Source: Lachnospiraceae bacterium
GTDB lineage: Bacteria > Bacillota > Clostridia > Lachnospirales > Lachnospiraceae
Reading direction: 5' to 3'
Assembly (NCBI GenBank): GCA_045616485.1
Contig: JAZLGU010000044.1
Span: 897 to 64,896, forward strand
DNA length: 64,000 nt
The notes under the pieces are model-generated. The model was given only the letters and a program-made list of their open reading frames with translations. It was not told where the DNA came from and ran no database searches. The position numbers and the translations under genes are program-made. This document shows positions 1-59,889 of this stretch, in pieces (positions within the stretch are counted from its first letter, which is position 1; each line of letters opens with the position of its first letter).

Positions 1-964
1 TATCATTAATTGCAGTAAACTTATAGTAAAGATTCTCCACAGGTGTCTCTGTAGTATAAGCTCCTTTTGCTTTGCTAAAGTCTACCTTCTTCCAAAAGTC
101 ATTGATAAAGCAATCTGCCATCTTTACCTGGCCATCATAATTGGGGTGAAAGTCTACAAATTTACCATCTGCACCATACTGCAGATACTGAGAATTAAAT
201 AAGCTGTCAAGATTTACATAGTAAACATTACTATCGCTTGAAGCTAATGCTTTATAATACTGTTGAATCTCATTTATTGCGGTTTTTACAGATCTGGTAA
301 AAAGGTAAGAGGTTATTATATCCATATTGACTATACTTGATAAAGTGGAAACACCATAATTATCATTATAACCTACATTAGTAAGAGCGATTTTACAATT
401 TGGATTATAACTCTCAATAACAGAAATAGTTTGTTTTACTTTTTCATTTATTGAAGCAATATATTTTATATGAAGCTCATTTTTAGAGTTCCCTAAAGCA
501 TCGGTAACTGCTTTATATACAGGGCTACTAGTTGTGATTCTGTTCTTACTTCCAATCAAATCAGGAGTGTCATAGCCTGCTCTGTATAAAGCTTCACCCA
601 GCATATGAATTATATCATTACCACCAATGCAAATTGTTATAAAATCAGCCTTTTTGATATCATCGATAACTTTTGCATCGTTAATAATCTGATAAAAAAC
701 ATCATCCGTAGTATAGCCACCTTTAGCATCATTACGAATAATGATTTCAACATTCTTGGATTTTTCCAGCTTTTCCTTTACATATACAGGATAAGTAGTC
801 CAATCTTTACCATCATATGTTGCATAGTCTGTCAAACTATCCCCCAGCGCCAGATAAGCGACCTTAGTTCTTCCGGCTGCATCAGCATATCTTAACGGTA
901 AAAGAGTAATGCAACATGCAAGCATAACAACAAGTGCCAGTGCTTTTTTTGTAAATCTTTTCAT
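1..964 (-). CDS. secreted SGNH/GDSL-family hydrolase (3' end runs off the window)
   Basis: Absent from the ORF track because it is open at the window edge. Hand translation from the ATG (complement of 962-964), preceded by GGAGGG, gives MKRFTKKALALVVMLACCITLL (signal peptide). Then come LALGDSLTD (block I GDS), CIGGNDI (block III GxND) and DFHPN (block V DxxH). Confidence 0.8.
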   Translation of the reverse strand, partial: MKRFTKKALALVVMLACCITLLPLRYADAAGRTKVAYLALGDSLTDYATYDGKDWTTYPVYVKEKLEKSKNVEIIIRNDAKGGYTTDDVFYQIINDAKVIDDIKKADFITICIGGNDIIHMLGEALYRAGYDTPDLIGSKNRITTSSPVYKAVTDALGNSKNELHIKYIASINEKVKQTISVIESYNPNCKIALTNVGYNDNYGVSTLSSIVNMDIITSYLFTRSVKTAINEIQQYYKALASSDSNVYYVNLDSLFNSQYLQYGADGKFVDFHPNYDGQVKMADCFINDFWKKVDFSKAKGAYTTETPVENLYYKFTAIND

Positions 965-1014
965 TATATCGCCCTCCAAAAGTTAGTATATATAGTATAT
1001 ACTTTTTGTCCCCA

Positions 1015-1087
1015 AGGTGGTGTAAACTTAGTATAAATATACACTTAATTAATTATATTTATTGTGTCTTCTGTTTTTACACCACCT
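1015..1087. repeat. 12-bp inverted repeat AGGTGGTGTAAA / TTTACACCACCT separated by 49 nt of AT-rich DNA
   Basis: Read directly: arms at 1015-1026 and 1076-1087. It lies 50-120 nt upstream of the minus-strand GDSL gene start, so it may be an operator or 5'-UTR stem. Confidence 0.55.
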
Positions 1088-1239
1088 CTTAATAATATAT
1101 AGTGAAGTAAGCAATGTAAATAGGCAATGTGGTTCAAATGTTTATATATTTGCAAAAGAAGACTCGACATAAACGAACTATACTCCAGATGATAGTGTAA
1201 AATACTAATTTTATCCTCAGGATATTTCCCTTATTAGGG

Positions 1240-1269
1240 TTGACTTAGATTTATTCTTTTTTGTATAAT
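1240..1269 (+). promoter_or_regulatory. candidate sigma-A promoter (TTGACT - 18 nt - TATAAT) upstream of the DUF2971/MTase/AsnB-like operon
   Basis: -35 TTGACT at 1240-1245 and -10 TATAAT at 1264-1269. This would give a 5' UTR of roughly 270 nt before the ATG at 1546. Confidence 0.35.
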
Positions 1270-1545
1270 GACAAATAATGACAGACAATATGAATGCTTG
1301 CATCTGCCCGTGTGCCCTCACTGTCAAATTGCTAATGATGTTAATGATTTCAACGCCAGCTTGAAAAGACACTTGAAGATAGCCCCAAGTTTTATAACGA
1401 AGATTTAGTGAATTTCGTAAAAAAGCCATTTTAATTGGGATGATGTCACATCAAAAACATTAGATTTATACAAAAAGTAATAGTTATTCTTCCATGGATA
1501 TATAATAGTAATTTTTAAATATATAAAGCATAAGGTAAACATCCA

Positions 1546-2382
1546 ATGTCGACTATTAATTATCAAAAGTTTCCAAGTCTTCAGACCTTTGAGGATCTGG
1601 ATGACTATTATGAAAACAAATATGCACACCATACTGAATACAATCATTATGCAGGCAAGAATGCTATCAAATCTATTGTCAAAAATAATGAATTCTGGAT
1701 TTCTTCTGTAAAAGGATTTAATGATTGTGAAGATACCGCGCAGTTTACAGATAATCTAAATGCTTATTATTCATTATGCTTTAGCACAGGAACGGAAGAA
1801 AATCTGGCTTTATGGTTTATTTATTCCAATAAAGATGGCGGCCGCATCAGATTCAACAAATTTAATCAAATATCTAAAATTATTGATAATTCTACTTTTA
1901 CACTTGCAATTAAAAATGCAAATAATACTACCACAAATCTTATGACACTCCAAAAAGGAAAAGATTTTGATTTGATTATTGGAGATATTATTTATAAAGG
2001 GCAAGAGAAGAAAGGTAAAGTAGCATTAAGATATAATACATTTATAAACTATCATATAGCCTGTAAAGAAATTAAAAAATTCAAAGAAGAGCATGTTGGA
2101 TTTATTAAAGATAATATATGGTACTACGAAAAAGAAACTCGTGTCCTTATAAAATTAAAGGATAATGTACTAAAATCCATCACTTTTAATGAAAACAAAG
2201 AATACATAATAAAAATGAATTTTTCCAATGTTAAGCTATATAAACTTAATGTTGATTTATCACCTGGAATTACAGAAAATGAATTCTACGATTTATCAAA
2301 AGAATTGATCAGTTCAAAATATCAGGTGGCTATTAAACCAAGCTGTTTTTTCGGTAAAATTAGAAAATGGCCCAATAACTAG
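1546..2382 (+). CDS. hypothetical protein, DUF2971-like
   Basis: 278-aa ORF. The N-terminal HYAGKNAIKSIVKNNEFWISSVKGFNDCEDTAQF resembles the DUF2971 signature (YHYT...l..il....l..s....lNDp.E), recalled from memory. It is the first gene of a tightly spaced three-gene unit. Confidence 0.5.
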   Translation: MSTINYQKFPSLQTFEDLDDYYENKYAHHTEYNHYAGKNAIKSIVKNNEFWISSVKGFNDCEDTAQFTDNLNAYYSLCFSTGTEENLALWFIYSNKDGGRIRFNKFNQISKIIDNSTFTLAIKNANNTTTNLMTLQKGKDFDLIIGDIIYKGQEKKGKVALRYNTFINYHIACKEIKKFKEEHVGFIKDNIWYYEKETRVLIKLKDNVLKSITFNENKEYIIKMNFSNVKLYKLNVDLSPGITENEFYDLSKELISSKYQVAIKPSCFFGKIRKWPNN

Positions 2383-2402
2383 TTCTCCCCAGGGTACCCA
2401 TC

Positions 2403-3167
2403 ATGCTTACTAATCTTAAAACAAAAATAAAACAACAGGAAAAACATAACATAATTGCAAAAATAGTTATGAAGATATACAGACTATTTAAGAAGATTCT
2501 TCGATTTATTACCAGCAGAAAGTACAGATCTCTGGTGAAGATGAAGTTCTTTCATTCCAAAAGGGCTCAGCAGACCACCTGTTATACTGCTATGGATCGT
2601 TATCCCAATGAATTTGCTGCTGCAAAGGAATACTTTGATTCTATCAATAAAACGGATATTAGAATCCTTTCCTATGGCTGTTGCACCGGCGAAGAAGTAG
2701 TGACACTTAGGCAGTATTTTCCGGAGGCTACCATTGTAGGGGCTGAGATTAATGCTGACAGCTTGCGTATATGTAAAAAGCGAAAGCTGGATAATAAGAT
2801 TGTTTTTATCAAGTCCATTCCTAAAAAGATAGCAAAGTATGGTCCATACGATATGGTGCTGGCCATGGCAGTACTGGAACGTACACCACAGTATGTGCAA
2901 AATAACGGCATCACAGACCTTTCTAATATTTATCCTTATGAAAAGTATGACAAGCAGGTAATAGAGCTGGATTCATATCTTAAAAAGGATGGCTTGTTTT
3001 TATGTAGCTATACCCATTATTTCTTACCAGACTCTACTGTGGGGAAGAAATATAATGTATATGGCAACTGTGGCTTTAAGGGTCAGATTTTTGACACTCA
3101 TAGTAAGCTAAAAAGTAGTGATAAAGCATTTCCGGATATGTTTATAAAAAGTAAATTACAGGGGTAG
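2403..3167 (+). CDS. class I SAM-dependent methyltransferase, CheR-like motif set
   Basis: RILSYGCCTGEEVVTL matches CheR motif I (IWSaGCsTGEEpYS). IVGAEINADSL and YDMVLAMAVLE fit the post-I and motif II/III positions. It starts 20 nt after the preceding gene and ends 6 nt before the next. The exact start is uncertain because the RBS is weak. Confidence 0.7.
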   Translation: MLTNLKTKIKQQEKHNIIAKIVMKIYRLFKKILRFITSRKYRSLVKMKFFHSKRAQQTTCYTAMDRYPNEFAAAKEYFDSINKTDIRILSYGCCTGEEVVTLRQYFPEATIVGAEINADSLRICKKRKLDNKIVFIKSIPKKIAKYGPYDMVLAMAVLERTPQYVQNNGITDLSNIYPYEKYDKQVIELDSYLKKDGLFLCSYTHYFLPDSTVGKKYNVYGNCGFKGQIFDTHSKLKSSDKAFPDMFIKSKLQG

Positions 3168-3173
3168 TTTCTC

Positions 3174-5105
3174 ATGTCAGCGATATATGGAGCTGTAGAT
3201 CTAAAAAACACTAGTGACTTTTCAGTCCAGGCAGAAAAGTATAAAAAGGAATATTCAGCGTATGCAGTAGAGCATGTAGATAATATAATTTCCGGCTCTG
3301 CCTTTATGGGCTGTGCCCATCAGTATTTTACTCCTGAAGCAGAACGTGATGTGTTGCCTGTAGAAGAGCCCGAGCTGCTTTTCACAGCCGACTGTTTCCT
3401 GGACAATCATATAGAGCTTAAAGAGGCGATGCAGCTCCCCTCTGATACTCCGGACGGGGCAGTGATACTGGCAGCGTTTAAGAAGTGGAAAAAGGATGTT
3501 ATAAAGCATCTTCATGGCTCCTTTTCCTTTGCTATCTATGATAAAGAGGCCCGTGAAGTCATGCTGGCCAATGACCGTTTTGCCCAGCGTTGTTTATTCT
3601 ATACCGTAAGGGGCAGTCAGGTTCATTTTTCTACACTCTTTTATCCATTACTTCGTAATAGTGGTCTGGACTTTAAAAAGAATAATCGCTGGCTTTTGGA
3701 CAGTATTTCCATGCGTGGACCTGTTATGATGTCTGAATGCAGGGAGACTGCCGTAGACTCCGTATATAAGGTAGTAAGCGGCACTTTCGTTACCATTAGT
3801 CTCGGCAGCGACGACAATGCCATTATAGAAGAGCATGAGTATTACAGGCCAAAAGATGAGATCAAGGTAAATAGAAAAATCACTCCTAAAAAGAGTGAGG
3901 ATATGATAAAAGATGTGATGTACCATGCCGTGGGCAGGATACTTAGAAATAAAGATCATATAGGTGCTCAGCTTAGCCGCGGACTGGACAGTACTTCAGT
4001 CGCCTGTACAGCTGCCATTCTTATGGCAAGAGAAGGAAAGTCTATAAACAGCTATACATCTGTCCCTTTAAAGGAGGCCAATCTGGATAATAAGGGGTAT
4101 CTCGTATACGACGAGACCAGTGGCGTCATGAAAGTAGTAGAAGCTTACCCCAATATCAAGCCTCATTTTATCGATACTGCCGGTAGAAATTACCTGCAGG
4201 AAGCAGATAATATCATTCGTCTTTGGGAGCTGCCTTGCAAGTCCCAGCAAAATTCCATCTGGTCCGACGAGATATATAAGCAGGCTGCAGCAGATGGAGT
4301 AAAGATAATGCTGACCGGAGCTACGGGCAATTGCACCATATCCGCCGGTAGCATCGAAAATTCACTCTATGATCATTTAAAGCATCTGCGCTTTATAAAA
4401 GCTTACAAAAGCCTTGGAGTAGCAAAAAAAGTAGGGGTACCGCCTAAGCGTTATTTAAGAAATCTTTGGAATCTCTACAAGAATTATAGAAAATGGGTAA
4501 AAGAGAATCATAGCTTCTACGAAGAAAATTTCACCAGAAGCGATATAGGAGAAGCATACAAGCTCTCTACCCGTATGGTGGAAAATAATGGTCATTATCT
4601 GCCCTTTGAAGATCTTAAGGCCATGCGTAAAGTCATGTTTTTCCAGAAGGCTAATGCCCAGATAGGCGAAGTAGATACCAAGACCAGTCTTACATATGGT
4701 GTACTGCCCAGAGACCCCATGCGTACCCACGATATGATGCAGCTCTGCTATTCCCTGCCTATAGAATGTTTCTCCTGGGATGATTATGACAGACGTCTGG
4801 TAAGAGAGGGTATGGCAGGTATTGTACCTGAATTTATACGTCACGACGTGCGCCATCGTGGCCGTCAGAGTGGTGATATCTACTATAGACTGAGTCTGGT
4901 ATGGGATGATGTATTACCTGTCATAAAAAATCAGCTATATAGTCCATCTACTTTAGACTATCTGGATAAAAAGAAAATAGCAGAGTGGCTGGATACTCTG
5001 ACCCGGGACAATCTCGAAGAGAATAGCAATAAAACCCTGATGGTAGTAGATGCTTATTCATTTTCACTTTATGTAAATCAGCTTGATAAACTCATATCAA
5101 AATAG
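3174..5105 (+). CDS. asparagine synthetase (AsnB)-family enzyme lacking the glutaminase Cys; lasso-peptide macrolactam synthetase-like
   Basis: 643 aa. It starts MSAIYG instead of MCGI (Cys2 nucleophile replaced by Ser). FTADCFLDNHIELKEAM sits at the position of NGEIYN..EL. LSRGLDSTSVACTAA matches the SGGLDSS PP-loop. The RBS AGGGG is upstream. Confidence 0.75.
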   Translation: MSAIYGAVDLKNTSDFSVQAEKYKKEYSAYAVEHVDNIISGSAFMGCAHQYFTPEAERDVLPVEEPELLFTADCFLDNHIELKEAMQLPSDTPDGAVILAAFKKWKKDVIKHLHGSFSFAIYDKEAREVMLANDRFAQRCLFYTVRGSQVHFSTLFYPLLRNSGLDFKKNNRWLLDSISMRGPVMMSECRETAVDSVYKVVSGTFVTISLGSDDNAIIEEHEYYRPKDEIKVNRKITPKKSEDMIKDVMYHAVGRILRNKDHIGAQLSRGLDSTSVACTAAILMAREGKSINSYTSVPLKEANLDNKGYLVYDETSGVMKVVEAYPNIKPHFIDTAGRNYLQEADNIIRLWELPCKSQQNSIWSDEIYKQAAADGVKIMLTGATGNCTISAGSIENSLYDHLKHLRFIKAYKSLGVAKKVGVPPKRYLRNLWNLYKNYRKWVKENHSFYEENFTRSDIGEAYKLSTRMVENNGHYLPFEDLKAMRKVMFFQKANAQIGEVDTKTSLTYGVLPRDPMRTHDMMQLCYSLPIECFSWDDYDRRLVREGMAGIVPEFIRHDVRHRGRQSGDIYYRLSLVWDDVLPVIKNQLYSPSTLDYLDKKKIAEWLDTLTRDNLEENSNKTLMVVDAYSFSLYVNQLDKLISK

Positions 5106-5120
5106 ACGTGATAAAAAATT

Positions 5121-5134
5121 ACAATATTGTTACA
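5121..5134. promoter_or_regulatory. perfect 10-bp palindrome ACAATATTGT overlapping an ATATTGTTACA motif; candidate operator
   Basis: Palindrome at 5121-5130 and motif at 5124-5134, just upstream of the putative -35 at 5139. Related motifs occur at 5515-5525 and 5596-5607. Confidence 0.3.
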
Positions 5135-5138
5135 TCTC

Positions 5139-5167
5139 TTGCAATATATATAGCCTGGTGGTAAGAT
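5139..5167 (+). promoter_or_regulatory. candidate promoter for alpha1/beta1 (TTGCAA - 17 nt - TAAGAT, with TGG immediately upstream of the -10)
   Basis: Hand-counted spacing: -35 at 5139-5144 and -10 at 5162-5167. Confidence 0.35.
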
Positions 5168-5212
5168 GGCAAAGGTTCAAAATGAATTAGTAAATTGTAG
5201 GAGGATTATACA

Positions 5213-5350
5213 ATGAAGAATTGGAATACACCCGCAGTAGAAGAAGTAAAGGTTAGCAATACACAGTACGGTGGTGCTACTGTTACAGAGCCTGATGACG
5301 TTTTTGTAAACGCTGATGGTAAGTGGGAAGCTACTTTCGTAGCATCATAA
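5213..5350 (+). CDS. RiPP precursor-like peptide alpha1 (45 aa): MKNWNTPAVEEVKVSNTQYGGATVTEPDDVFVNADGKWEATFVAS
   Basis: The ATG lies 7 nt after AGGAGGA (5199-5205) and the stop TAA is at 5348-5350. Its paralog alpha2 differs mostly by synonymous changes. The leader-like N-terminus is shared with three neighbouring short ORFs. Confidence 0.8.
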   Translation: MKNWNTPAVEEVKVSNTQYGGATVTEPDDVFVNADGKWEATFVAS

Positions 5351-5369
5351 TTTGAGGGAGGACATAAAG

Positions 5370-5504
5370 ATGAAGAATTGGAATATGCCTGCAGTAGAAG
5401 TAGTTGAGATCTCAGCTACACAGAATGGTGGTATGCCTAGCAAGAATTTCGACCAGTCATGGTACGATGAGAATGGCGCTCTTCACGTAAATTTCGAGAG
5501 CTAA
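5370..5504 (+). CDS. RiPP precursor-like peptide beta1 (44 aa): MKNWNMPAVEVVEISATQNGGMPSKNFDQSWYDENGALHVNFES
   Basis: The ATG is preceded by GAGGGAGGA (5354-5362), 19 nt after the alpha1 stop. The stop TAA is at 5502-5504. It aligns without gaps to alpha1. Confidence 0.8.
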   Translation: MKNWNMPAVEVVEISATQNGGMPSKNFDQSWYDENGALHVNFES

Positions 5505-5527
5505 TTATTTAAACATATTGTAACAGA

Positions 5528-5581
5528 GGGGGACGTTTCCAGCTGACAAGATTTAAATGTTGTCAGTTGGAAACGTCCCCC
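5528..5581 (+). terminator. 22-bp stem hairpin (one G-U pair, 10-nt loop) between the two alpha/beta cassettes; terminator, attenuator or RNA-stability element
   Basis: GGGGGACGTTTCCAGCTGACAA (5528-5549) pairs with TTGTCAGTTGGAAACGTCCCCC (5560-5581). There is no clean U-tract. Outer arms CATATTGTAACA (5514-5525) and TGTTACAAATATG (5596-5608) extend the structure. Confidence 0.6.
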
Positions 5582-5617
5582 TGTCATATATTAATTGTTA
5601 CAAATATGAAATATTTC

Positions 5618-5646
5618 TTGATATAAAAATAACATAGTGATATTAT
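5618..5646 (+). promoter_or_regulatory. candidate promoter for alpha2/beta2 (TTGATA - 17 nt - TATTAT with TGA extended -10)
   Basis: -35 at 5618-5623 and -10 at 5641-5646, with TG at 5638-5639. Confidence 0.45.
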
Positions 5647-5688
5647 CTAAAATATCTTATAAGAAGTAATTTTTGGGAGGAAAAAATT

Positions 5689-5829
5689 ATGAAGAACAAT
5701 TGGAATACACCAGCTGTAGAGGAAGTAAAGGTTAGCAATACTCAGTACGGCGGCGCTACTGTTACAGAGCCTGATGACATTTTTGTAAATGCTGATGGTA
5801 AGTGGGAAGCTACATTCGTAGAGTCATAA
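5689..5829 (+). CDS. RiPP precursor-like peptide alpha2 (46 aa): MKNNWNTPAVEEVKVSNTQYGGATVTEPDDIFVNADGKWEATFVES
   Basis: The ATG is preceded by GGGAGG (5675-5680) and the stop TAA is at 5827-5829. Relative to alpha1 there are 8 synonymous codon changes, 2 replacements (V->I, A->E) and one extra Asn codon. Confidence 0.8.
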   Translation: MKNNWNTPAVEEVKVSNTQYGGATVTEPDDIFVNADGKWEATFVES

Positions 5830-5848
5830 TTATAGGGAGGACATAAAA

Positions 5849-5998
5849 ATGAAGACTTGGACAGATCCAGATGTAAAGGTACTTGATATCGAAGAGACAG
5901 CAAATGGCGGTATGCCTAGCAAAAATTTCGACCAGCAGTGGTACGATGAGAATGGCGCTCTTCACGTAAATTTCGTTGATCCTAACGCTAATAGCTGA
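5849..5998 (+). CDS. RiPP precursor-like peptide beta2 (49 aa): MKTWTDPDVKVLDIEETANGGMPSKNFDQQWYDENGALHVNFVDPNANS
   Basis: The ATG is preceded by AGGGAGGA, 19 nt after the alpha2 stop, and the stop TGA is at 5996-5998. The core is nearly identical to beta1, including a 37-nt identical stretch, while the leader has diverged. Confidence 0.8.
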   Translation: MKTWTDPDVKVLDIEETANGGMPSKNFDQQWYDENGALHVNFVDPNANS

Positions 5999-6016
5999 TT
6001 CTATCAGGTTATTACT

Positions 6017-6046
6017 CCGCACATGTAAATGTGCGGTCTTTTTTTG
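6017..6046 (+). terminator. Rho-independent terminator closing the peptide locus
   Basis: CCGCACAT (6017-6024), loop GTAA, ATGTGCGG (6029-6036), followed by TCTTTTTTT. Confidence 0.8.
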
Positions 6047-6218
6047 TTCATTTCTTATATCACATAATATCATTATATTTATAAGTAATTTTCAAGTGAT
6101 TATTCATTATTATTTTTATAATTTGCTTGCTTTTTCTTCTATAATAGGATATCATATCGTCTTGTACAAATGTATACAATTATACCATGATTATGAAATA
6201 CAGGAATATTTCATAGTA

Positions 6219-6304
6219 GGAGATAAAGAGTTCTCCATTTATTCCACTTCGTTTCATAAAAGGAGATAAAGAGTTTCCCATTTATTCCACTTCGTTTCAT
6301 AAAA
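6219..6304 (+). repeat. 43-bp tandem direct repeat (2 full copies plus a partial third that supplies the aminotransferase RBS)
   Basis: GGAGATAAAGAGTTCTCCATTTATTCCACTTCGTTTCATAAAA (6219-6261) is repeated at 6262-6304, with TTCTCC changed to TTTCCC. GGAGATAACATG then follows at 6305. Confidence 0.85.
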
Positions 6305-6313
6305 GGAGATAAC

Positions 6314-7513
6314 ATGTCACTTGAACTTTCTAAAAAAGCACTAGCAGTAAAGCCTTCATCTACCCTGGCTATCACAGCCAAGGCTAAGAAAATGAAAGCT
6401 GAGGGTATCGATGTAGTAGGATTTGGTGCAGGTGAGCCGGATTTTAATACACCTCAGAATATTTGTGATGCAGCCAAAAAAGCTATTGACGATGGCTTTA
6501 CCAAGTATACACCTGCTTCAGGTACAGTAGAGCTGCGACAGGCTATTGCCCAGAAGTTTAAAAGATTTAATAATCTTTCCTACGATATAAGTCAGATAGT
6601 AGTATCTAACGGTGGTAAGCATTCTCTTACCAATGTTTTTGAGGCTATTATTAATCCCGGTGATGAGGTCATCATCCCTGCACCTTTCTGGCTCAGCTAT
6701 CCTGAGATAGTAAAGCTTTGTGGCGGTGTACCTGTTATCGTTGACTGTCCTGCCAGCCAGAGCTATAAAATGACAGCTGCTCAGCTGCAGGCTGCTATTA
6801 CAGAGAGGACAAAGGCAGTTGTACTCAATACTCCTTCCAATCCCACAGGTATGATATATACCAAGGATGAGCTACTTGAGCTGGCTCAGGTCATTGTAAA
6901 GAATGATATCTACTGTGTATCCGACGAGATGTACGAGAATCTCGTATATACAGATGATGAGGTCGTATCTATAGCTTCCCTGGGTCAGGATATCTATGAC
7001 CGTACCATTACCTGCTCCGGCGTATCAAAGGCCTATGCCATGACCGGCTGGAGAATAGGCTATGTAGGCGCTCCTCGTGAGATTGCTGCTCTTATGGGCT
7101 CCATCCAGTCTCATCAGACTTCCAATCCCGGCTCTATCGCTCAGGCTGCTTCTTTAGAGGCTCTTTGCGGCCCTCAGGACACTATTGAGGATATGAGAAA
7201 AGAATTTGACAGAAGAAGAGTATATATGTATGACAGACTGTCCTCCATGCCTCTTATTTCCTGTCTGAAGCCTCAGGGTGCTTTCTATGTATTTGTAGAT
7301 ATGACCAATGTTTTTGGCAAAAAGTATCAGGAGCAGACTATTGAAAATATCGGCGATGTAGCTCGTATCCTTATCGACGATTACAAGACAGCAGTTATTC
7401 CTTGTGCTGATTTTGGTGCCCCCAATCATATGCGTCTTTCCTATGCCATCTCCATGGAAAACATCGAGAAGGGTCTGGATAGAATAGAAGGCTTCCTCAA
7501 TACTATCTGCTAA
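6314..7513 (+). CDS. pyridoxal-phosphate-dependent aspartate aminotransferase (class I)
   Basis: 399 aa. It has the SKAYAMTGWRIGY PLP-lysine motif, NPSNPTG-like TPSNPTG, and typical AspAT length. Confidence 0.85.
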   Translation: MSLELSKKALAVKPSSTLAITAKAKKMKAEGIDVVGFGAGEPDFNTPQNICDAAKKAIDDGFTKYTPASGTVELRQAIAQKFKRFNNLSYDISQIVVSNGGKHSLTNVFEAIINPGDEVIIPAPFWLSYPEIVKLCGGVPVIVDCPASQSYKMTAAQLQAAITERTKAVVLNTPSNPTGMIYTKDELLELAQVIVKNDIYCVSDEMYENLVYTDDEVVSIASLGQDIYDRTITCSGVSKAYAMTGWRIGYVGAPREIAALMGSIQSHQTSNPGSIAQAASLEALCGPQDTIEDMRKEFDRRRVYMYDRLSSMPLISCLKPQGAFYVFVDMTNVFGKKYQEQTIENIGDVARILIDDYKTAVIPCADFGAPNHMRLSYAISMENIEKGLDRIEGFLNTIC

Positions 7514-7550
7514 AATAAAATTAAAAGAGAATAGGAAAATCCTTGTTTTT

Positions 7551-7591
7551 AGGCCAGTTTTATTATACAATAAAGACTGGCCTATTTTTTT
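7551..7591 (+). terminator. Rho-independent terminator after the aminotransferase gene
   Basis: AGGCCAGT ... ACTGGCCT stem followed by a T7 run. Confidence 0.7.
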
Positions 7592-7614
7592 ATTATACTT
7601 AAAGAGGAGATTTT

Positions 7615-8412
7615 ATGATCGGATTTATCGGTACCGGCAATATGGGTATGCCACTTATAAGTGGTGCCATAGAGGCTTTTGGCCATGATAATGTTATTAT
7701 CCATGGTAAGAATGAAAGAAAAAATGATGAGATATCCTGTAAATCTCATATAGTCTGCGGCTCCTCCAATAAAGAGGTAGTAAAGCTGTCCGAGCTTATT
7801 ATACTGGCTATAAAGCCCCAGGTATATGACGAGGTATTTGCTGAGATAAAAGAGACTGTACTTACATCCACCGGTAAAAAGACCTTTGTGTCTCTGGCTC
7901 CCGGTCGTACCTGCGCCTCCATTGAAGAATACTTTGAAGGCAAGGTAAATGTAGTACGCGCCATGCCCAATACTCCTGCCCAGATAAAGCAGGGTATGAC
8001 AGCCATATCTTTTTCCGATTCCTTTGACGGAAAAAAGGATGATGTGCTTAAGCTTTTTTCCTGCGTAGGTAAAAGCGTATGCATGCCGGAGAGACTTATT
8101 GATTCCAGTATAGTAGCTTCCGGATCATCACCTGCTTTCGTATATATGTTTATAGAAGCGCTGGCTGATGGAGCCGTAAAGTATGGTATTCCTCGTGAGC
8201 AGGCTATCCAGATGGCCGCTCAGACTGTTCTGGGCTCAGCCCGTATGGTGCTGGAGTCTAAAGAGCATCCTGCCATTCTTAAAGATAAAGTATGTTCTCC
8301 CGGCGGTACCACTATTTGCGGTGTAGCTGCCCTGGAGGAGTACGGCTTTAGAAATGCCATTATAAAGGCCTGTGATGCCACCTATGAAAAGGCATCTGCT
8401 TTAAAGAAATGA
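7615..8412 (+). CDS. proC: pyrroline-5-carboxylate reductase
   Basis: GFIGTGNMG Rossmann motif, MPNTPA, SPGGTT signature, 265 aa. Confidence 0.85.
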   Translation: MIGFIGTGNMGMPLISGAIEAFGHDNVIIHGKNERKNDEISCKSHIVCGSSNKEVVKLSELIILAIKPQVYDEVFAEIKETVLTSTGKKTFVSLAPGRTCASIEEYFEGKVNVVRAMPNTPAQIKQGMTAISFSDSFDGKKDDVLKLFSCVGKSVCMPERLIDSSIVASGSSPAFVYMFIEALADGAVKYGIPREQAIQMAAQTVLGSARMVLESKEHPAILKDKVCSPGGTTICGVAALEEYGFRNAIIKACDATYEKASALKK

Positions 8413-8957
8413 TTATGGATACACCAAAAATAAAATCAAAAGAATTAATTAAAAAAGGCTCTATAGTAGAATTTTACAGTCTGGATATGGAGATGCCCGG
8501 TGGCCATACCGCCAGATGGGATTTTGTGAGCCATAGAGGAGCTGCTGCCATTATTTGTCCTGATGGGACAGGACGTATATATATGGTCAGACAGTATCGT
8601 CCCGGCACTGATTCCATTACTTTAGAGATACCTGCAGGCTGTGTGGATGCAGGTGAAGATAAAAAGACTGCAGCTATGCGTGAGCTGGAGGAAGAGGTAG
8701 GTGTAAAGTGCGAGACAGCAGAGCATCTTATTACCTACTATGGCATCCCGGCCTACAACAATGAATGTGTAGAGATATACATAGCAAAAAATATCAGCGC
8801 CGGCCATCAGCATCTGGATGCGGACGAGCAGATTACAGTAGAATCTTACTCTTTATCTGAGCTTACGGACATGATTTTATCCGGTGTTATAGTCGATGGG
8901 AAGACTATCGCAGGCATTCTGGCTTATAAAGAGAAGTTAAATAAAAAGGAAATATAA
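8409..8957 (+). CDS. NUDIX hydrolase (ADP-ribose pyrophosphatase-like)
   Basis: Nudix box GCVDAGEDKKTAAMRELEEEVG. It overlaps the proC stop by 4 nt. Confidence 0.8.
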   Translation: MIMDTPKIKSKELIKKGSIVEFYSLDMEMPGGHTARWDFVSHRGAAAIICPDGTGRIYMVRQYRPGTDSITLEIPAGCVDAGEDKKTAAMRELEEEVGVKCETAEHLITYYGIPAYNNECVEIYIAKNISAGHQHLDADEQITVESYSLSELTDMILSGVIVDGKTIAGILAYKEKLNKKEI

Positions 8958-8975
8958 TAAAGGAGATACTTTCTT

Positions 8976-10301
8976 ATGAGAATGTATGATTTAATTACCA
9001 AAAAGAAACATGGTGAAGAATTAACAAAAGAAGAGATAACATTTATTATTAACGGCTATACAGAGGGTACTATCCCTGATTATCAGATGTCTTCCTTCCT
9101 CATGGCAGTATACTTTAAGGGTATGACAGACCGTGAGACAGTAGATATGACCAATGCCATGATAGATACCGGCGACAGACTTGATCTGTCCGCTATTAAG
9201 GGCGTAAAAGCCGATAAGCATTCCACAGGCGGTGTAGGCGATAAGACCAGTCTTATTATCGGACCTATGGTAGCTGCCCTTGGTGTTCCTGTAGCCAAGA
9301 TGAGCGGACGTGGTCTGGGTCATACCGGCGGCACCATCGACAAGCTGGAGAGCTTTAAAGGCTTTTCCGTTTCTCTTACCGATCAGCAGTTTATAGATAA
9401 TGTAAATCAGATTGGTCTTGCCATTATGGGTCAGACAGCCAATCTGGTACCTGCAGATAAGAAGATCTATGCCCTTCGTGACGTTACAGCTACAGTAGAC
9501 AATATGTCTCTTATTGCAGCTTCCATCATGAGTAAAAAGATAGCTGCAGGCTCTGACGTTATTGTTCTTGATGTTAAGGTAGGCTCCGGCGCCTTTATGA
9601 AGACTCTGGAAGACGCCAAAGACCTGGCTGAGACTATGGTACGCTTAGGTGAGGGCTGTGGTCGTAAGACTTACGCAGTTCTTTCCGATATGAGCCAGCC
9701 TTTAGGTGAGTACGTAGGTAATGCCCTGGAGGCCTATGAGGCTATTGAAGCCCTTAAGGGACGCGGTCCTGAGGACTTAATGGAGGCCTGCATGACTCTT
9801 GCTTCCTATATGCTTATCGGTGCCGGTAAGGCTCGTGATGCAGCAGAAGCCCAGAGACTTTTACAGGGTACTATTGATAGCGGCGCAGCTCTTAAAAAGC
9901 TTAGCGAGTTTGTGGCAGCTCAGGGCGGCGATGCGTCTGTTATCGAGAAAAACGGCAAATTCTCCCACACAGAATTTTGCGAAGATATTATTTCTACCAC
10001 AGAGGGCTATGTATCTGAGATCATCACTGATGAGATTGGTATGACCAGCCTTATCCTGGGTGGTGGCCGTGAGACTAAGGAGTCAGATATTGACCTGTCA
10101 GTAGGTATCAAGATACTTAAAAAGGTAGGCGACTACGTATCCAAGGGCGATCCTATTGCCAGACTTTATGCCAATGATGTAGAAAAGCTTAAAGTGGCAT
10201 CTGCCCGCCTGCAGGCTGCTTATATCTACTCAGATAAGAAAGTAGAAAAGCCCAAGCATGTTCTTGGCATTATTACAAAGGACGAGACGATTATTTTCTA
10301 G
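8976..10301 (+). CDS. pdp: pyrimidine-nucleoside (thymidine) phosphorylase
   Basis: DKHSTGGVGDK and SGRGLGHTGGTIDKLE motifs, 441 aa. Confidence 0.9.
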   Translation: MRMYDLITKKKHGEELTKEEITFIINGYTEGTIPDYQMSSFLMAVYFKGMTDRETVDMTNAMIDTGDRLDLSAIKGVKADKHSTGGVGDKTSLIIGPMVAALGVPVAKMSGRGLGHTGGTIDKLESFKGFSVSLTDQQFIDNVNQIGLAIMGQTANLVPADKKIYALRDVTATVDNMSLIAASIMSKKIAAGSDVIVLDVKVGSGAFMKTLEDAKDLAETMVRLGEGCGRKTYAVLSDMSQPLGEYVGNALEAYEAIEALKGRGPEDLMEACMTLASYMLIGAGKARDAAEAQRLLQGTIDSGAALKKLSEFVAAQGGDASVIEKNGKFSHTEFCEDIISTTEGYVSEIITDEIGMTSLILGGGRETKESDIDLSVGIKILKKVGDYVSKGDPIARLYANDVEKLKVASARLQAAYIYSDKKVEKPKHVLGIITKDETIIF

Positions 10302-10303
10302 TT

Positions 10304-11113
10304 ATGGGATGGTATTATATAGTTTTAATAGTATTACTGGCATTATTCATACTTTTTACTTTGTATGAGATATACGAGCACAAAGTTATTGATTTTCATC
10401 ACGAGGATATAGCCCTGGGTCTCCAAAAAAGAGCAGTGGTTATATCCGATGTGCATGATTGCCCTGTTTCCGAAAGGACTTATAAAAAAATAGCGGCAGA
10501 AAAGCCTGACTATATTTTTGTAGCAGGGGATGTTATAAATAAAAGGACTAAGAATTATGAAAAGGGTCTTTCAGTACTGCATAGGCTGGCAGAAATAGCA
10601 GATATTTACTACTGTCTGGGCAATCATGAAATGACCTTCAGAAGGGAGTTTCCCGTATCCTGGCAGGAGTACATAAGGAGTCTTCCTGACAATTGTTTTA
10701 TCCTGGACAATGAAGAAGTCACACGTGACGGCTTTATTATCCACGGTCTTACACTTGACAGACGTTTTTACAAAAAATTCCATTTTTACAATACGGAGCA
10801 TGAGGATTTGTCCTTCTATAAAGACAAGCAAACGGATCTTCCCAGGATAGTGCTGGCTCACAATCCTGACTATGTGGATATGTATATTCGTGCTATGCAT
10901 CCTAGCCTTATCATATCCGGCCATTGTCATGGTGGACTTATCCGCCTTATGAATGGCGAGGGACTGATTTTTTCCAGTCCTACAGGGCCCAGAAGAGGCG
11001 CAGGTATGTATTCTGTAAAGGGTAGCCTGCTGCTGGTACATCGTGGCATGGGCTCCCACACCATCCCCCTTCGTATCCACAACAGATGCGAAGTCATAAC
11101 TATCGATTTTTAA
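10304..11113 (+). CDS. membrane-anchored metallophosphoesterase (YkuE-like)
   Basis: N-terminal TM helix, plus the ISDVHD, GDVIN, GNHE and GHCHGG calcineurin-like motifs. Confidence 0.8.
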   Translation: MGWYYIVLIVLLALFILFTLYEIYEHKVIDFHHEDIALGLQKRAVVISDVHDCPVSERTYKKIAAEKPDYIFVAGDVINKRTKNYEKGLSVLHRLAEIADIYYCLGNHEMTFRREFPVSWQEYIRSLPDNCFILDNEEVTRDGFIIHGLTLDRRFYKKFHFYNTEHEDLSFYKDKQTDLPRIVLAHNPDYVDMYIRAMHPSLIISGHCHGGLIRLMNGEGLIFSSPTGPRRGAGMYSVKGSLLLVHRGMGSHTIPLRIHNRCEVITIDF

Positions 11114-11137
11114 AAATAAAAGGCAAAAGGTTACAAA

Positions 11138-11929
11138 ATGGCAGCAATACCAGTAAAGCTTGAAGCATTCGAAGGTCCTCTTGACCTGCTTCTTCATCTG
11201 ATAGATGTAAACAAAGTAAATATTTATGATATTCCTATAGCAGAGATTACCGACCAGTATCTGGATGCCATAAAAGGCATCGAGGAAAAGGACATGGATA
11301 CCATGAGTGAATTTTTAGTAATGGCCTCCACCTTATTACGATTAAAGTCGGATATGCTGCTGCCCAAGGAGATCGATGAAGAGACCGGTGAAGAGATTGA
11401 TCCTAGAGCAGAGCTGGTAGAGCGACTCTTAGAGTATAAGATGTATAAGTATACCAGCCTGGAGCTTAAAGATATGCAGATGGATGCAGACAGAATGCTT
11501 TTCAGAAAGTCCAATCTGCCTCCTGAGATCCTTAATTATCACGAGGAAGTGCCTGTCTCAGAGCTCTTAAATGATATTACTCTTAAAAAGCTTAATGACA
11601 TCTTTGACGCAGTTATGAAAAAGCGTGAGGATAAGGTGGATCCTATCAGAAGTAAATTCGGTAAGATCGAGAAAGAAGAGATCAGCCTGTCCAGAAAGAT
11701 GTATCATGTCCAGGAGTATGGCATCCTCCATCGCAAGTTTTCTTTTAAGACTTTACTGGAGTCCCAGCATGATAAAATGGATGTTATAGTTACCTTCCTT
11801 TGTATACTGGAGCTTATGAAAATGGGCAGGATGAATATTACTCAGCAGGATATTTTTGAGGATATCGAAATAGAGTACACAGCTACAGATATTGTAGACT
11901 TTGATGAAACTAATTCTTTTGGGTTATAA
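11138..11929 (+). CDS. scpA: segregation and condensation protein A
   Basis: FEGPLDLLLHLI signature; followed by scpB. Confidence 0.9.
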   Translation: MAAIPVKLEAFEGPLDLLLHLIDVNKVNIYDIPIAEITDQYLDAIKGIEEKDMDTMSEFLVMASTLLRLKSDMLLPKEIDEETGEEIDPRAELVERLLEYKMYKYTSLELKDMQMDADRMLFRKSNLPPEILNYHEEVPVSELLNDITLKKLNDIFDAVMKKREDKVDPIRSKFGKIEKEEISLSRKMYHVQEYGILHRKFSFKTLLESQHDKMDVIVTFLCILELMKMGRMNITQQDIFEDIEIEYTATDIVDFDETNSFGL

Positions 11930-11945
11930 GGGGATTTTGAATTAA

Positions 11946-12518
11946 ATGGATGAAATAAAAGCATTAGAAGCAAAAATTGAAGCTATTCTTTTTACCATGG
12001 GTGAGGCAGTAGAGGCTGACCGTATCGCTATAGCTCTGGAGCAGGATACTGATGCCGTAAGAAATATTATTCGTGATATGGCACTTAAATACAAAGAGGC
12101 TGATCGCGGTATCCAGATCATAGAGCTCAATGATTCCTTCCAGCTCTGCACCAAGCCTGACATGTATGAGTACATTATCAAGGTGGCTCATGCCCCTAAA
12201 AAGCCTGTACTTACAGATGTTTTACTGGAGACCCTGTCCATCATAGCTTATAAGCAGCCCATTACCAGGACTGAGATATCCGCTATTCGCGGTGTCAATT
12301 GCGATCATGCGGTAAGCAAGCTGGTAGAGTACAATCTGGCTACTGAGCTGGGCCGTATGGATGCTCCCGGACGTCCTATAGCCTTTGGTACCACAGAAGA
12401 ATTTCTTCGTCACTTTGGCCTTAGCAGCCTGTCCGATCTGCCTATCGTCAATCCCGAAAAGCTGGAAGACTTCAAGATAGAAGTCCAGCAGGAACTGCAG
12501 TTAACATTAGATATCTAA
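11946..12518 (+). CDS. scpB: segregation and condensation protein B
   Basis: EAILFTMGE... and LETLSIIAYKQPITRTEISAIRGV winged-helix signature; synteny with scpA. Confidence 0.9.
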   Translation: MDEIKALEAKIEAILFTMGEAVEADRIAIALEQDTDAVRNIIRDMALKYKEADRGIQIIELNDSFQLCTKPDMYEYIIKVAHAPKKPVLTDVLLETLSIIAYKQPITRTEISAIRGVNCDHAVSKLVEYNLATELGRMDAPGRPIAFGTTEEFLRHFGLSSLSDLPIVNPEKLEDFKIEVQQELQLTLDI

Positions 12519-12536
12519 TTTTTTAAAGGAAGAAAA

Positions 12537-59178: not shown

Positions 59179-59889
59179 TTATTTATTTTTCTTTGGACCA
59201 AAAGAAAATCTGTTCTCGTTATGATTTTTAAGTCTCTTAATATTGCTTCTGTGATTATATACACAAAGCACCGTAAATATCCAGGTAAAGCAGGACATGG
59301 CAATCCATATATTTTGATTAAAAGAGCCATAATCAAAAATATCACCATGACCGCCATAGCTAAAGTAGCCCTGAACAAGTACAAAAAGAGGGAAAAGTAA
59401 GGATGCTACCATGGAGGCAATACTCATATACTTTGTAATAAATATGGTAAGGGCAAAAATGGCAAATCCGCCTACTGCCAGCCTCCAGTCATATAAAAGC
59501 ATGCAGGCTCCCATACAGGCCACTCCCTTTCCACCTTTGAATTTAAGATAAAAAGGAAACATATGACCAAGTACAGCGCCAAAGCCTACCAAAAGTACCA
59601 GGAGCTGATTCATCTGAGACATGGCCGGATACTGCTGGAAGAATAAAAATCTAACCAGCAAAATAGGCAGCATAGTCTTAAACAGGTCAATAAACAGAGT
59701 AATAAATCCGGCTTTAGGCCCCATTACTCTAAGAACATTTGTTGCTCCTGTATTGCCACTTCCCTGATGCTTGATATCAACATTGCCTTTTTTGGCTACT
59801 ATCGTACCTGATGAAAAACATCCGCATATATAGCCTATAACAATACAGAAAATCACCTGTAAAGGAATCATATCAATAAACAACTGCAT
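59179..59889 (-). CDS. plsY: glycerol-3-phosphate acyltransferase PlsY
   Basis: GSGNTGATNVLR and FKGGKGVA motifs; polytopic; located between der and gpsA. Confidence 0.9.
   Translation of the reverse strand: MQLFIDMIPLQVIFCIVIGYICGCFSSGTIVAKKGNVDIKHQGSGNTGATNVLRVMGPKAGFITLFIDLFKTMLPILLVRFLFFQQYPAMSQMNQLLVLLVGFGAVLGHMFPFYLKFKGGKGVACMGACMLLYDWRLAVGGFAIFALTIFITKYMSIASMVASLLFPLFVLVQGYFSYGGHGDIFDYGSFNQNIWIAMSCFTWIFTVLCVYNHRSNIKRLKNHNENRFSFGPKKNK

Follow-up and report, generated by a model that had tools for sequence, protein, structure and literature searches.

A lasso peptide locus of methyltransferase, cyclase and four precursor genes without neighbouring B1 and B2 genes in a Lachnospiraceae bacterium

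The 64-kb stretch of DNA from a Lachnospiraceae bacterium analysed here (hereafter the window) contains a short lasso peptide locus near its left end, and the remainder is occupied by housekeeping genes. The lasso locus proper extends from 2403 to 6046 and consists of a methyltransferase (MT), an AsnB-like cyclase (C) and four precursor genes in the order MT-C-A1-A2-A3-A4 (Table 1). The open reading frames of 278 and 254 amino acids that the initial annotation had placed beside the AsnB-like gene are both present on the + strand, and the four precursor genes complete the series. The left border is formed by a divergently transcribed GDSL-like gene (GC 0.335), which lies outside of the lasso system and is separated by an intergenic region of 580 bp from a gene of the DUF2971 family.

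Table 1. Features of the lasso locus and its left flank (positions within the window).
Feature	Position	Strand	Evidence or details
GDSL-like lipase/acylhydrolase gene, 5' part, signal or lipoprotein-like N-terminus	1..964	-	PF13472 55.9 bits, PF00657 52.7 bits
DUF2971-family protein, 278 aa	1546..2382	+	PF11185 23.5 bits
Class-I SAM-dependent methyltransferase (MT), 254 aa	2403..3167	+	Methyltransf_31/23/25/12/11 matches
AsnB-like lasso macrolactam cyclase (C), 643 aa	3174..5105	+	NF033535 150 bits; PF00733, GATase_7
Precursor A1, 45 aa	5213..5350	+	leader MKNWNTPAVEEVKVSNTQY; core GGATVTEPD...VAS
Precursor A2, 44 aa	5370..5504	+	core GGMPSKNFD...NFES
Hairpin, long and near-perfect, between A2 and A3	5519..5590	+	read from sequence
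Precursor A3, 46 aa, A1 paralogue	5689..5829	+	
Precursor A4, 49 aa, A2 paralogue, C-terminal extension VDPNANS	5849..5998	+	
Intrinsic-terminator-like hairpin and T-run, operon end	6017..6046	+	8-bp stem, 5 GC pairs, then TCTTTTTTTG

The stop codon of the MT gene lies 6 nt 5' of the start of C. The DUF2971 gene precedes MT in the same orientation, with a gap of 20 nt and no predicted terminator in between, and its co-transcription with MT-C is plausible from this arrangement. A promoter scan found 29 sites compared with 26.7 expected from shuffled sequences; the count shows no excess and is therefore uninformative on co-transcription. The hairpin between A2 and A3 could be an attenuator, a terminator or an mRNA-stabilising stem. 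It attracted the only matches of an Rfam search of positions 900-6400, all of them spurious matches to miRNA hairpins, and a promoter-like sequence (TTGATA-17-TATTAT, 5618-5646) is located 3' of it.

The best family for the cyclase is NF033535, where its 150 bits lie under the cut-off of 525, as do the 160-200 bits of cyclases from canonical clusters with the gene order D-B1-B2-K-C-A-A, to which it is 42-52% identical. All 37 family-invariant columns are retained, including the PP-loop S268-x-G-L-D-S273 (SxGLDS). When a genome collection was scanned with the single cyclase sequence, the only match was a protein of Ruminiclostridium with 21% identity. The four precursors share the leader motif W-x2-P-x-V-x2-[VL]-x-[VI]-x2-T (W, +3 P, +5 V, +8 V/L, +10 V/I, +13 T), a Thr at position -3, Gly1, Asp9 and a C-terminal Ser, and this one register with a Ser at the end was found in all 16 precursors compared, including those of clusters with B1 and B2. 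A small first core residue and an Asp or Glu at core position 7-9 are typical of lasso precursors. The matches of the four to the paeninodin family NF033524, that of A1 among them, are weak. Similarity to the precursors of the canonical cluster L008 of Pseudobutyrivibrio xylanivorans CP043028 is more pronounced, with E=4e-10 in tblastn for the two A1 sequences and 61% identity (E=1e-16) for the two A2 sequences. Paeninodin has a nine-residue ring with Asp9, and we infer a ring between Gly1 and Asp9 for the products of the window.

The precursor pair has been duplicated, giving four genes, and the substitutions between the copies show purifying selection. A1 and A3 differ by nine synonymous and two non-synonymous codon changes. 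The cores of A2 and A4 differ at one of 23 positions, and in their leaders one of six motif positions has changed as against nine of the 12 others (one-sided Fisher p=0.03). The core of A4 is furthermore near-identical to the precursor of another locus, L014. By all these sequence features the cyclase is intact and the locus looks functional. A leader-independent chemistry of the AsnB-like enzyme, one of the options initially raised, is unlikely, as both the cyclase and the precursors have their orthologues in canonical lasso clusters.

In three of these canonical relatives (L008, L012 and L016) the genes are arranged as ABC-PqqD-Transglut_core3-HprK-C-A-A, that is, D-B1-B2-K are contiguous, co-directional and directly upstream of C; the neighbouring genes in L008 match NF033537 (lasso B2) and NF033536 (lasso PqqD). 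None of this half of the cluster could be recovered from the window. With the proteins of the three relatives as queries, tblastn for B1, B2, K, N and D gave a best E-value of 0.14 across the 64 kb, and iterated HMMs for B1, B2, N and D found no match even at E<=10 among the 585 ORF segments of the window. Specifically, the Transglut_core3 Cys protease B2 (PF13471 / NF033537) is absent from the window (tblastn E>0.3, no iterated HMM match), the PqqD-like RRE B1 (PF05402 / NF033536) was detected by neither method, and an ABC exporter (D), an HPr-kinase-like gene (K) and a nucleotidyltransferase (N) were found neither at 964-6313 nor elsewhere in the 64 kb. Remains of decayed B1, B2 or K genes can likewise not be recognised in the window by tblastn. 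The earlier observation that 964-6313 holds no leader peptidase, RRE or exporter is thus borne out and extends to the whole window.

One might suppose that the cluster is merely interrupted and that canonical B1 and B2 genes, perhaps accompanied by K and D, follow on the far side of the divergent GDSL gene, in the part of the contig shortly upstream of the window. Indeed, 1.5 kb are visible upstream of the DUF2971 gene, and the window represents 64 kb of an 89.7-kb source contig. We nevertheless regard this as very unlikely, as the genes are contiguous and co-directional in all relatives, whereas here they would be separated from the rest of the cluster by 580 bp of intergenic DNA and by a lipase gene that runs in the opposite direction.

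The initial annotation had further stated that the DUF2971-like protein and the methyltransferase occupy the positions of the missing genes. The identities of the two genes hold, but the wording is misleading, since in the relatives K is found directly upstream of C and MT genes of this family as a rule accompany B1 and B2. Neither of the genes at 1546-3167 replaces B1 or B2, and the two have no functional relation to each other.

For the 278-aa protein, the match to PF11185 (23.5 bits, cut-off 22) spans residues 89-200 instead of the N-terminus, where the DUF2971 similarity had previously been placed; the same family is matched by 29 of the 41 members of its subfamily. GC content is 0.281 and GC3 0.24, compared with 0.427 and 0.42 in C (28% vs ~43% for the lasso genes in general), and the GC3 difference marks the gene as foreign. 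Neighbours of its homologues include genes for TIR/TPR, Band-7, nSTAND and UvrD proteins, and a resemblance to defence islands was seen in two of three homologue contexts; matches to PADLOC PDC-S31 are weak (E=7e-5 to 1e-3). Within the subfamily the ExE motif E195-K-E197 and the tyrosines Y93, Y150 and Y163 are invariant, H34, D60 and C78 are nearly so, and a C-terminal LCxxCxK motif present in most members is missing from the protein of the window. An assignment as ADP-ribosyltransferase-like (ART-like) is predicted from the literature on the family (see below) and the ExE motif, with motifs I-III placed by analogy. The gene is best read, from sequence and context, as a stand-alone, horizontally acquired, putative defence-type gene, similar to Aristaios and with no role in lasso maturation.

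A role in lasso maturation had, however, been considered, with the protein binding or cleaving the leader as a new partner of the cyclase. The position of the gene, 20 nt from MT-C in the same orientation with no predicted terminator, would agree with such a partner, as would the near-invariant H34, D60 and C78, and a search of a predicted structure for an RRE or protease fold had been proposed. In Foldseek comparisons of the model (pLDDT 90) with the PDB, neither was found: there was no protease, transglutaminase, papain or winged-helix match, and hhalign against the B1 and B2 profiles gave a probability of 0.2%. Lasso genes occur at none of six homologue loci, no DUF2971 gene was seen at the other C- or MT-containing loci examined, the GC3 value marks a foreign gene, and the functions tied to the family are anti-phage and ART-like (PMC11381338, PMC12522546). 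The partner hypothesis is therefore close to refuted, and we accord it only a minimal residual chance. In the same protein, a Cys-His-Asp protease formed by H34, D60 and C78 was considered as well and rejected, because C78 falls midway along a beta-strand, the model matches neither a papain nor a transglutaminase fold and the genomic contexts are unrelated to lasso genes. The DUF2971 protein shows neither hydrolase nor RRE features and no co-conservation with the AsnB-like gene, the observations by which the initial annotation had proposed to judge a partner role. With the gene read as a passenger of the defence type, the attractive but mistaken idea of a 'new B protein' falls away.

The second gene is of a different nature. 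In Pfam the 254-aa protein matches generic class-I SAM methyltransferase models, its structural model (pLDDT 91) consists of three helices in residues 1-50 followed by a Rossmann core, and Foldseek likewise retrieves generic methyltransferases. The motif ILSYGCCTGEE (residues 88-98) had led to its description as CheR-like. This resemblance is confined to motif I (xxSxGCxTGEE) and to a precomputed PF01739 match in one of 40 homologues: PF01739 (CheR) is not matched by the protein itself, with the family profile CheR 5ftw scores no better than E=0.077 and is outranked by lysine methyltransferases of Rickettsia (E=7e-6), CheR is absent among the top 50 Foldseek matches, and the genomic context is that of a RiPP, not of chemotaxis. 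An RRE in the N-terminal part, for which a check had been suggested, was also rejected, as the first 50 residues are purely helical without a beta-sheet and hhalign against B1 gave 0.2%.

The distribution of the MT family is more informative. Lasso genes were found at 36 of 80 metagenomic loci of the family, and at 25 of 42 when only loci with flanks of 4 kb or more are counted; some 40% of the long-flank loci are non-lasso contexts, some of them polysaccharide loci. K is the closest neighbour, at a distance of no more than 106 nt in 12 of 26 cases, and is usually accompanied by B1 and B2. The MT family thus recurs as an accessory in kinase-type (paeninodin-like) lasso clusters. The MT of the window keeps all 33 invariant family columns (core QQTT...DRYP...ILSxGCxTGEEVxTLRxYFP), and it adjoins the cyclase in the absence of the kinase, its usual neighbour. 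Its closest homologue (64% identity, L017) is found on a 3-kb contig without a lasso gene, and no MT of this family is known in relatives within the cyclase clade of the window; MT and C may have been joined by recombination only recently, in an arrangement whose function is putative.

Since the family stands beside K and alongside B1 and B2 in lasso clusters, the MT is probably a tailoring enzyme for the precursors and no substitute for B1 or B2, an assignment that also draws on the 6-nt spacing to C. The HPr-kinase-like enzyme of kinase-type lasso clusters phosphorylates the C-terminal Ser. The tight linkage of the MT to this kinase points to the C-terminus, so that the C-terminal Ser region is the candidate target; of the proposal that the precursors are methylated, the enzyme's origin in a lasso-associated family speaks for the general idea, but the CheR-type modification of Glu side chains loses its basis. 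It is possible that the MT installs an undescribed modification, for example a methyl ester or methyl-phosphate at the invariant C-terminal Ser. The family, linked to the C-terminal-Ser kinase at many lasso loci and present at cyclase-less loci with lasso-type leaders, represents a candidate for a new lasso tailoring reaction.

Loci comprising only one part of a lasso cluster are not restricted to the window. Genes for B1 and B2 are missing from L014 (C and A) and from L018 (A-C-A-C-MT-esterase-A, flanked by a pflA-like and a PFL-like gene and lacking B1, B2 and K over 12 kb), and conversely K-MT-B1-B2 occur without C at L035, L036, L038, L045 and L023. Such loci could be taken to represent a real B-independent route, in which cyclase and MT act and the leader is removed by a non-dedicated protease or other hydrolase, such as the esterase of L018, making the window, L014 and L018 cases of a recurrent AsnB and MT type of RiPP locus. 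The MT of L018 is 50% identical to that of the window, and in vivo cyclisation without a leader peptidase has a precedent in the leaderless core of pseudomycoidin (PMC6993621). The leaders in the window, however, are full and carry the RRE-type motif and Thr(-3) exactly as in B1/B2 clusters, and its cyclase is of the same length as those of B-containing clusters, 46-52% identical to them and without an extra domain. The L018 cyclases are only ~22% identical to that of the window, so the loci do not form one lineage, and B genes may lie beyond the 8-10 kb flanks. A B-independent maturation appears quite improbable on this evidence.

Alternatively, the locus may be a recently orphaned remnant, in which a deletion or insertion tied to the low-GC block of GDSL and DUF2971 genes removed D-B1-B2-K, leaving MT, C and the precursors intact with no mature product formed. 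This would fit the position of D-B1-B2-K directly upstream of C in every canonical relative, the GC break at ~2500 within the 5' end of the MT gene and the lack of an exporter in the window; similarly, a rearrangement is suggested in L014, the other relative lacking B genes, by a NUDIX fragment of 38 aa immediately 5' of C. On the other hand, MT, C and the four precursors are free of frameshifts and stop codons, most of the codon changes between A1 and A3 are synonymous, A2 and A4 have kept the leader motif and core, the precursor pair is duplicated with a promoter-like site of its own, and no B1, B2 or K debris can be recognised. We therefore consider a dead remnant rather unlikely.

The reading that we favour, with moderate confidence, is that of a satellite locus MT-C-A1-A4, with the DUF2971 gene as an unrelated passenger and the B1 and B2 functions provided from elsewhere in the genome. 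Maturation in trans is the best reading because the precursors keep the hallmarks of B1/B2 recognition under purifying selection and the cyclase keeps its 37 invariant residues; B1 and B2, and also K and D, are most likely encoded outside the window. According to this proposal, the locus would have lost, or never have had, the D-B1-B2-K half of its closest relatives. A B1 RRE encoded elsewhere would bind the four precursors via the leader motif, and a B2 protease, likewise supplied in trans, would cut three residues past the Thr of the motif. The local cyclase would then link Gly1 to Asp9, the local MT, possibly together with a kinase in trans, would modify the C-terminal Ser region, and a transporter encoded elsewhere would export the product. 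If so, the locus would illustrate a split, modular lasso biosynthesis in Lachnospiraceae of the rumen type, and genome-mining tools that need B and C side by side would overlook it or label it wrongly.

Comparison with known systems places the components of the window at various distances from their counterparts. The DUF2971 family includes Aristaios, a single-gene abortive-infection anti-phage system on Lactococcus plasmids (PMC11381338), and has been predicted to represent an H-Y-E ART related to DarT/AbiGi (PMC12522546). The protein of the window shares with these the PF11185 membership, a stand-alone gene product of ~280-316 aa and the invariant ExE motif, and its homologues lie in neighbourhoods resembling defence islands. 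Yet it is only a distant, family-level relative of Aristaios, because tblastn against PLSDB plasmids and phage records gave nothing at E<=1e-3; a scan of viral contigs with the family profile was also negative, no sequence-profile match exists in the PDB and Foldseek did not recover an ADP-ribosyltransferase fold.

Lasso methyltransferases described so far comprise the C-terminal carboxyl O-methyltransferases StspM/LasF (lassomycin type) and the PIMT homologues LihM/TceM, which are involved in aspartimide formation (PMC9266682). Common to these and the window are a SAM-dependent methyltransferase in a lasso locus and the C-terminus of the precursor as a plausible shared target. The enzymes nevertheless belong to other families, as the MT of the window has no PF00891-type match and reaches only 13.1 bits for PCMT (PF01135, cut-off 20.3), and its family accompanies kinase-type clusters, in Firmicutes as well as in other phyla, unlike the actinobacterial lassomycin-type enzymes. 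A text search of reviews on lasso PTMs and of a 2026 review on interlocked peptides found no description of this MT family. A functional parallel may be seen in WbdD, the O-antigen terminating kinase and phosphate methyltransferase, to which the MT fold is similar (Foldseek rank 7, E=1.7e-7, TMq 0.44) and whose pairing of kinase and methyltransferase is mirrored by the adjacency of K and MT in lasso loci; this is an analogy, however, as the fold match is generic for class I and a kinase is missing from the window.

The pseudomycoidin system is likewise of the kinase type from Firmicutes and permits cyclisation without a leader peptidase, but this was achieved with a leaderless core and its native psm cluster encodes B proteins, whereas the precursors of the window keep full conserved leaders. 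Closest are the kinase-type lasso clusters of Firmicutes, i.e. the paeninodin type and the ruminal clusters of Butyrivibrio and Pseudobutyrivibrio identified in silico (PMC7533575, PMC8498205). From these the window differs by the lack of B1, B2, K and the exporter D across 64 kb, by an MT instead of K directly upstream of C and by the duplication of the precursor pair. Nevertheless, with a cyclase in the same range of identity (42-52%) and two precursor types located 3' of C that agree in leader register, in Gly1 and Asp9 and in the C-terminal Ser, the locus is a variant of this known lasso system.

The candidate lasso locus comprises a cyclase gene (C), four precursor genes (A1-A4) and a methyltransferase gene (MT), and upstream of it is a gene with a DUF2971 match; to the right of the locus follow an aminotransferase-like ORF and other ORFs that look like housekeeping genes from their translations. 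NF033535, the lasso cyclase family, is the top NCBIfam family for the 643-aa protein at 150 bits, a sub-threshold score that is normal for its clade, since cyclases from undoubted lasso clusters reach only 160-200 bits. The protein retains each of the 37 alignment columns found invariant in 44 relatives, the SxGLDS PP-loop among them. Its relatives with 42-50% identity belong to Butyrivibrio and Pseudobutyrivibrio. Three loci (L008, the canonical cluster of P. xylanivorans, L012 and L016) have the order ABC exporter (D), PqqD-like B1, Transglut_core3 leader peptidase B2, HprK-like K, C, A, A. The Butyrivibrio locus L010 reads N-B2-K-C-A-A, N being an NTP_transf_5 gene; no PqqD (B1) gene was detected in it by gene caller or HMM, and it is a further incomplete-looking lasso locus in the same group.

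Features of the window and of comparison loci, with the basis of assignment
Feature	Position	Strand	Basis or remark
GDSL-like lipase gene, left of lasso locus	start 964, continues past window edge	divergent	
Best promoter-like site of region	1240-1269		TTGACT-18-TATAAT, 11/12
46-aa Cys-containing ORF	1268-1408		directly after promoter-like site, in low-GC intergenic region upstream of DUF2971 gene; no Pfam match
278-aa ORF, DUF2971	1546-2382	+	Pfam
C-terminus of DUF2971 protein	2300-2382		KIRKWPNN
254-aa ORF, class-I SAM methyltransferase (MT)	2403-3167	+	generic Pfam models
643-aa ORF, lasso cyclase (C)	3174-5105	+	Asn_synthase + GATase_7 (Pfam), NF033535 (NCBIfam)
Four small precursor ORFs	5213-5350, 5370-5504, 5689-5829, 5849-5998	+	weak paeninodin precursor family matches (NCBIfam)
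Near-perfect hairpin between A2 and A3	5519-5590		stem ~22 bp
Promoter-like site between this hairpin and A3	5618-5646		TTGATA-17-TATTAT
Terminator-like hairpin, end of unit	6017-6036		
Full NUDIX-like gene	8409-8957		~3 kb downstream of lasso locus
444-aa ORF	59889-61223		Der/EngA-type GTPase by reading
L010, N-B2-K-C-A-A	1528-3267		
L014, 38-aa NUDIX fragment	7836-7952		directly upstream of B-less cyclase
L018, B-less compact cluster	3370-9970		GCA_024712465.1, JAMQYI011273947.1
L035, cyclase-less	8600-11800		
L036, L038, cyclase-less			same layout as L035
L045, cyclase-less	8900-13700		
L023, cyclase-less	400-6100		
L021, L022, cyclase-less			

The absence of B1, B2 and an exporter, which the initial annotation had reported for 964-6313, was confirmed and holds across all 64 kb. 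A tblastn search of the window with the relatives' B1, B2, K, N and D gave E=0.14 at best, while the precursors and the cyclase were strong matches in the same search, and when the window's 585 ORF segments were searched with profiles iterated over 97 loci, not one matched B1, B2, N or D at a threshold as loose as E<=10. The sole K "hit" is a P-loop match in the GTPase-like ORF of the table. The remaining ORFs read, from their translations, as core housekeeping genes (MreB-, MinD-, MutS- and MutL-type among others). That the B genes are located just outside the window appears highly unlikely.

As one possibility it had further been suggested that the DUF2971 protein is a new leader-binding or processing partner; by the criteria given with that suggestion, our comparisons refute it. 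The Pfam match covers residues 89-200 and scores 23.5 bits (cut-off 22). Within the subfamily PF11185 matches 29 of 41 members, and representatives number 154 at E<=1e-30, rising to 932 at E<=1e-10. Forty-three homologues share 33-42% identity with it. Six loci, obtained from three homologues on long contigs, contain no lasso genes near the DUF2971 gene; the neighbours are TPR/TIR-DUF6273 and Band-7 proteins (L002-L005), an nSTAND NTPase and a UvrD helicase (L006), and an LRR surface protein (L007). Conversely, a DUF2971 gene is absent from all the other C- or MT-containing loci that were compared. The family aligned with neither B2 nor B1 (0.2% probability, profile-profile), a sequence-profile search of the PDB was empty, and the structure model (pLDDT 90.2, pTM 0.89) matched nothing in the PDB at E<0.01 with Foldseek and only uncharacterised phage proteins, weakly, in BFVD. 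Its gene has a GC content of 0.281 (GC3 0.24), compared with 0.427 (0.42) for the cyclase and 0.42-0.46 for flanking genes, and belongs to a low-GC block that extends from the left edge of the window as far as about 2500. In Aristaios, an abortive-infection system consisting of one gene for a 316-aa protein, DUF2971 is the sole domain recognised (PMC11381338); bioinformatic work has placed DUF2971 among the ADP-ribosyltransferases of the H-Y-E clade, close to DarT and AbiGi (PMC12522546). In the subfamily the block W-Y-Y-E195-K-E197-T-R, with its ExE motif, is invariant and H34 nearly so; as Foldseek did not recover an ADP-ribosyltransferase fold for the model, this fold assignment follows the literature. 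The window copy keeps all 20 invariant core residues and lacks the C-terminal LCxxCxK motif present in at least 90% of the subfamily. The protein is not a lasso protein; in our reading its gene is a passenger of defence type that was gained by horizontal transfer.

The precursor genes are a tandemly duplicated pair, A1-A2 and A3-A4, with 87% nucleotide identity over 295 nt. A1 and A3 differ by nine synonymous and two non-synonymous codons, and the cores of A2 and A4 at one of 23 positions. In the leaders of the latter pair, 9 of 12 non-motif positions differ against 1 of 6 motif positions (one-sided Fisher p=0.03), the one motif change, V to L, being conservative. A single register (W, +3 P/A, +5 V/I, +8 V/I/L, +10 hydrophobic, +13 T, +16 Gly/Ser) is common to the 16 precursors compared, whether or not their loci hold B genes; those of the window type additionally have Asp at core position 9 and end in Ser. 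Selection falls on precisely the residues that would be read by a B1/B2 pair, which is our main argument for maturation in trans and speaks against a dead remnant; a recently orphaned locus seems unlikely. We consider it somewhat more probable than all other outcomes taken together that MT, C and A1-A4 form a satellite lasso locus beside an unrelated defence-type gene, in which B1 and B2, encoded elsewhere, would mature A1-A4, with K and D probably likewise supplied.

Incomplete loci occur elsewhere. L014 lacks B genes and has C and one precursor, with a core almost identical to that of A4; the NUDIX fragment beside its cyclase suggests a rearrangement scar. L018 has the order A (71 aa)-AsnB (636)-A (63)-AsnB (627)-MT (243)-PF00756 esterase (283)-A and is flanked by a pflA-like activase and a PFL-like ORF, with no B1, B2 or K within 12 kb. 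Its MT is 50% identical to that of the window and its cyclases about 22%; its precursors have the same leader and C-terminal Ser, with Glu instead of Asp9 near the ring position. Conversely, K-MT-B1-B2 loci with or without N and D (L035, L036, L038, L045, L023) have, like L021 and L022, no AsnB-like cyclase within up to 10 kb. The cyclase-less loci contain HprK-like kinase, MT, PqqD (B1), B2, NTP_transf_5 and ABC transporter genes, and precursors of 50-106 aa that have the lasso-type leader MKxxWxxPxLxxLxVxxT, end in Ser and have long cores rich in Cys; these loci may represent a RiPP type reusing the lasso leader and peptidase module. The leader/B1/B2 and cyclase modules can therefore exist apart, which makes a split arrangement plausible, yet keeps B-independent maturation alive, as does pseudomycoidin, where a core lacking its leader is cyclised by a related enzyme although the leader peptidase is absent (PMC6993621). 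Selection on the leader argues against a leader-independent reaction, and B-independent maturation is distinctly unlikely here; we retain maturation by B1/B2 in trans as the best reading.

The MT product, 254 aa long, is a methyltransferase of a lasso-associated family. Its forty homologues (39-64% identity) share the core QQTT..T..DRYP..F...IRILSYGCxTGEEVxTLRxYFP, and in its model (pLDDT 91.4) residues 1-50 form three helices that precede a Rossmann core. As an RRE it was rejected on account of these helices and a null hhalign comparison with B1; that with B2 was likewise null. Foldseek matches are generic class-I enzymes, including CysG, CmoA, WbdD, PrmC and TehB, with no CheR among the top 50, and the family profile matched Rickettsia lysine methyltransferases best in the PDB (E=7e-6), CheR only at E=0.077. 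The initial annotation, largely correct about the missing genes, erred in the label "CheR-like" and in letting the two genes occupy B positions. When metagenomes were scanned with the family alignment, 80 loci (L019-L098) were obtained, 36 of them with B1, B2, K, C or N. Where the flank reaches at least 4 kb such genes occur in 25 of 42 loci, and where both sides reach at least 3 kb, in 13 of 23. B1 (26 loci) and B2 (19 loci) are mostly there too, so that the family accompanies these proteins and does not replace them; more distant members have unrelated contexts, some in polysaccharide loci.

A text search of two lasso PTM reviews and a 2026 interlocked-peptide review, and a literature search on phosphate methylation, gave no description of this family. 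Every precursor of the lasso-type MT loci ends in Ser, the residue that is phosphorylated by the kinase in paeninodin-type systems (PMC8498205); the probable target of MT is therefore this C-terminal region, at the carboxylate or phosphate. K is the tightest neighbour of MT (at most 106 nt apart in 12 of 26 loci), and this adjacency, with WbdD among the best fold matches, suggests methylation of a C-terminal phospho-Ser or carboxylate. WbdD combines a kinase with a phosphate-methylating methyltransferase, and an MT acting on phosphate would parallel this kinase/methyltransferase logic.
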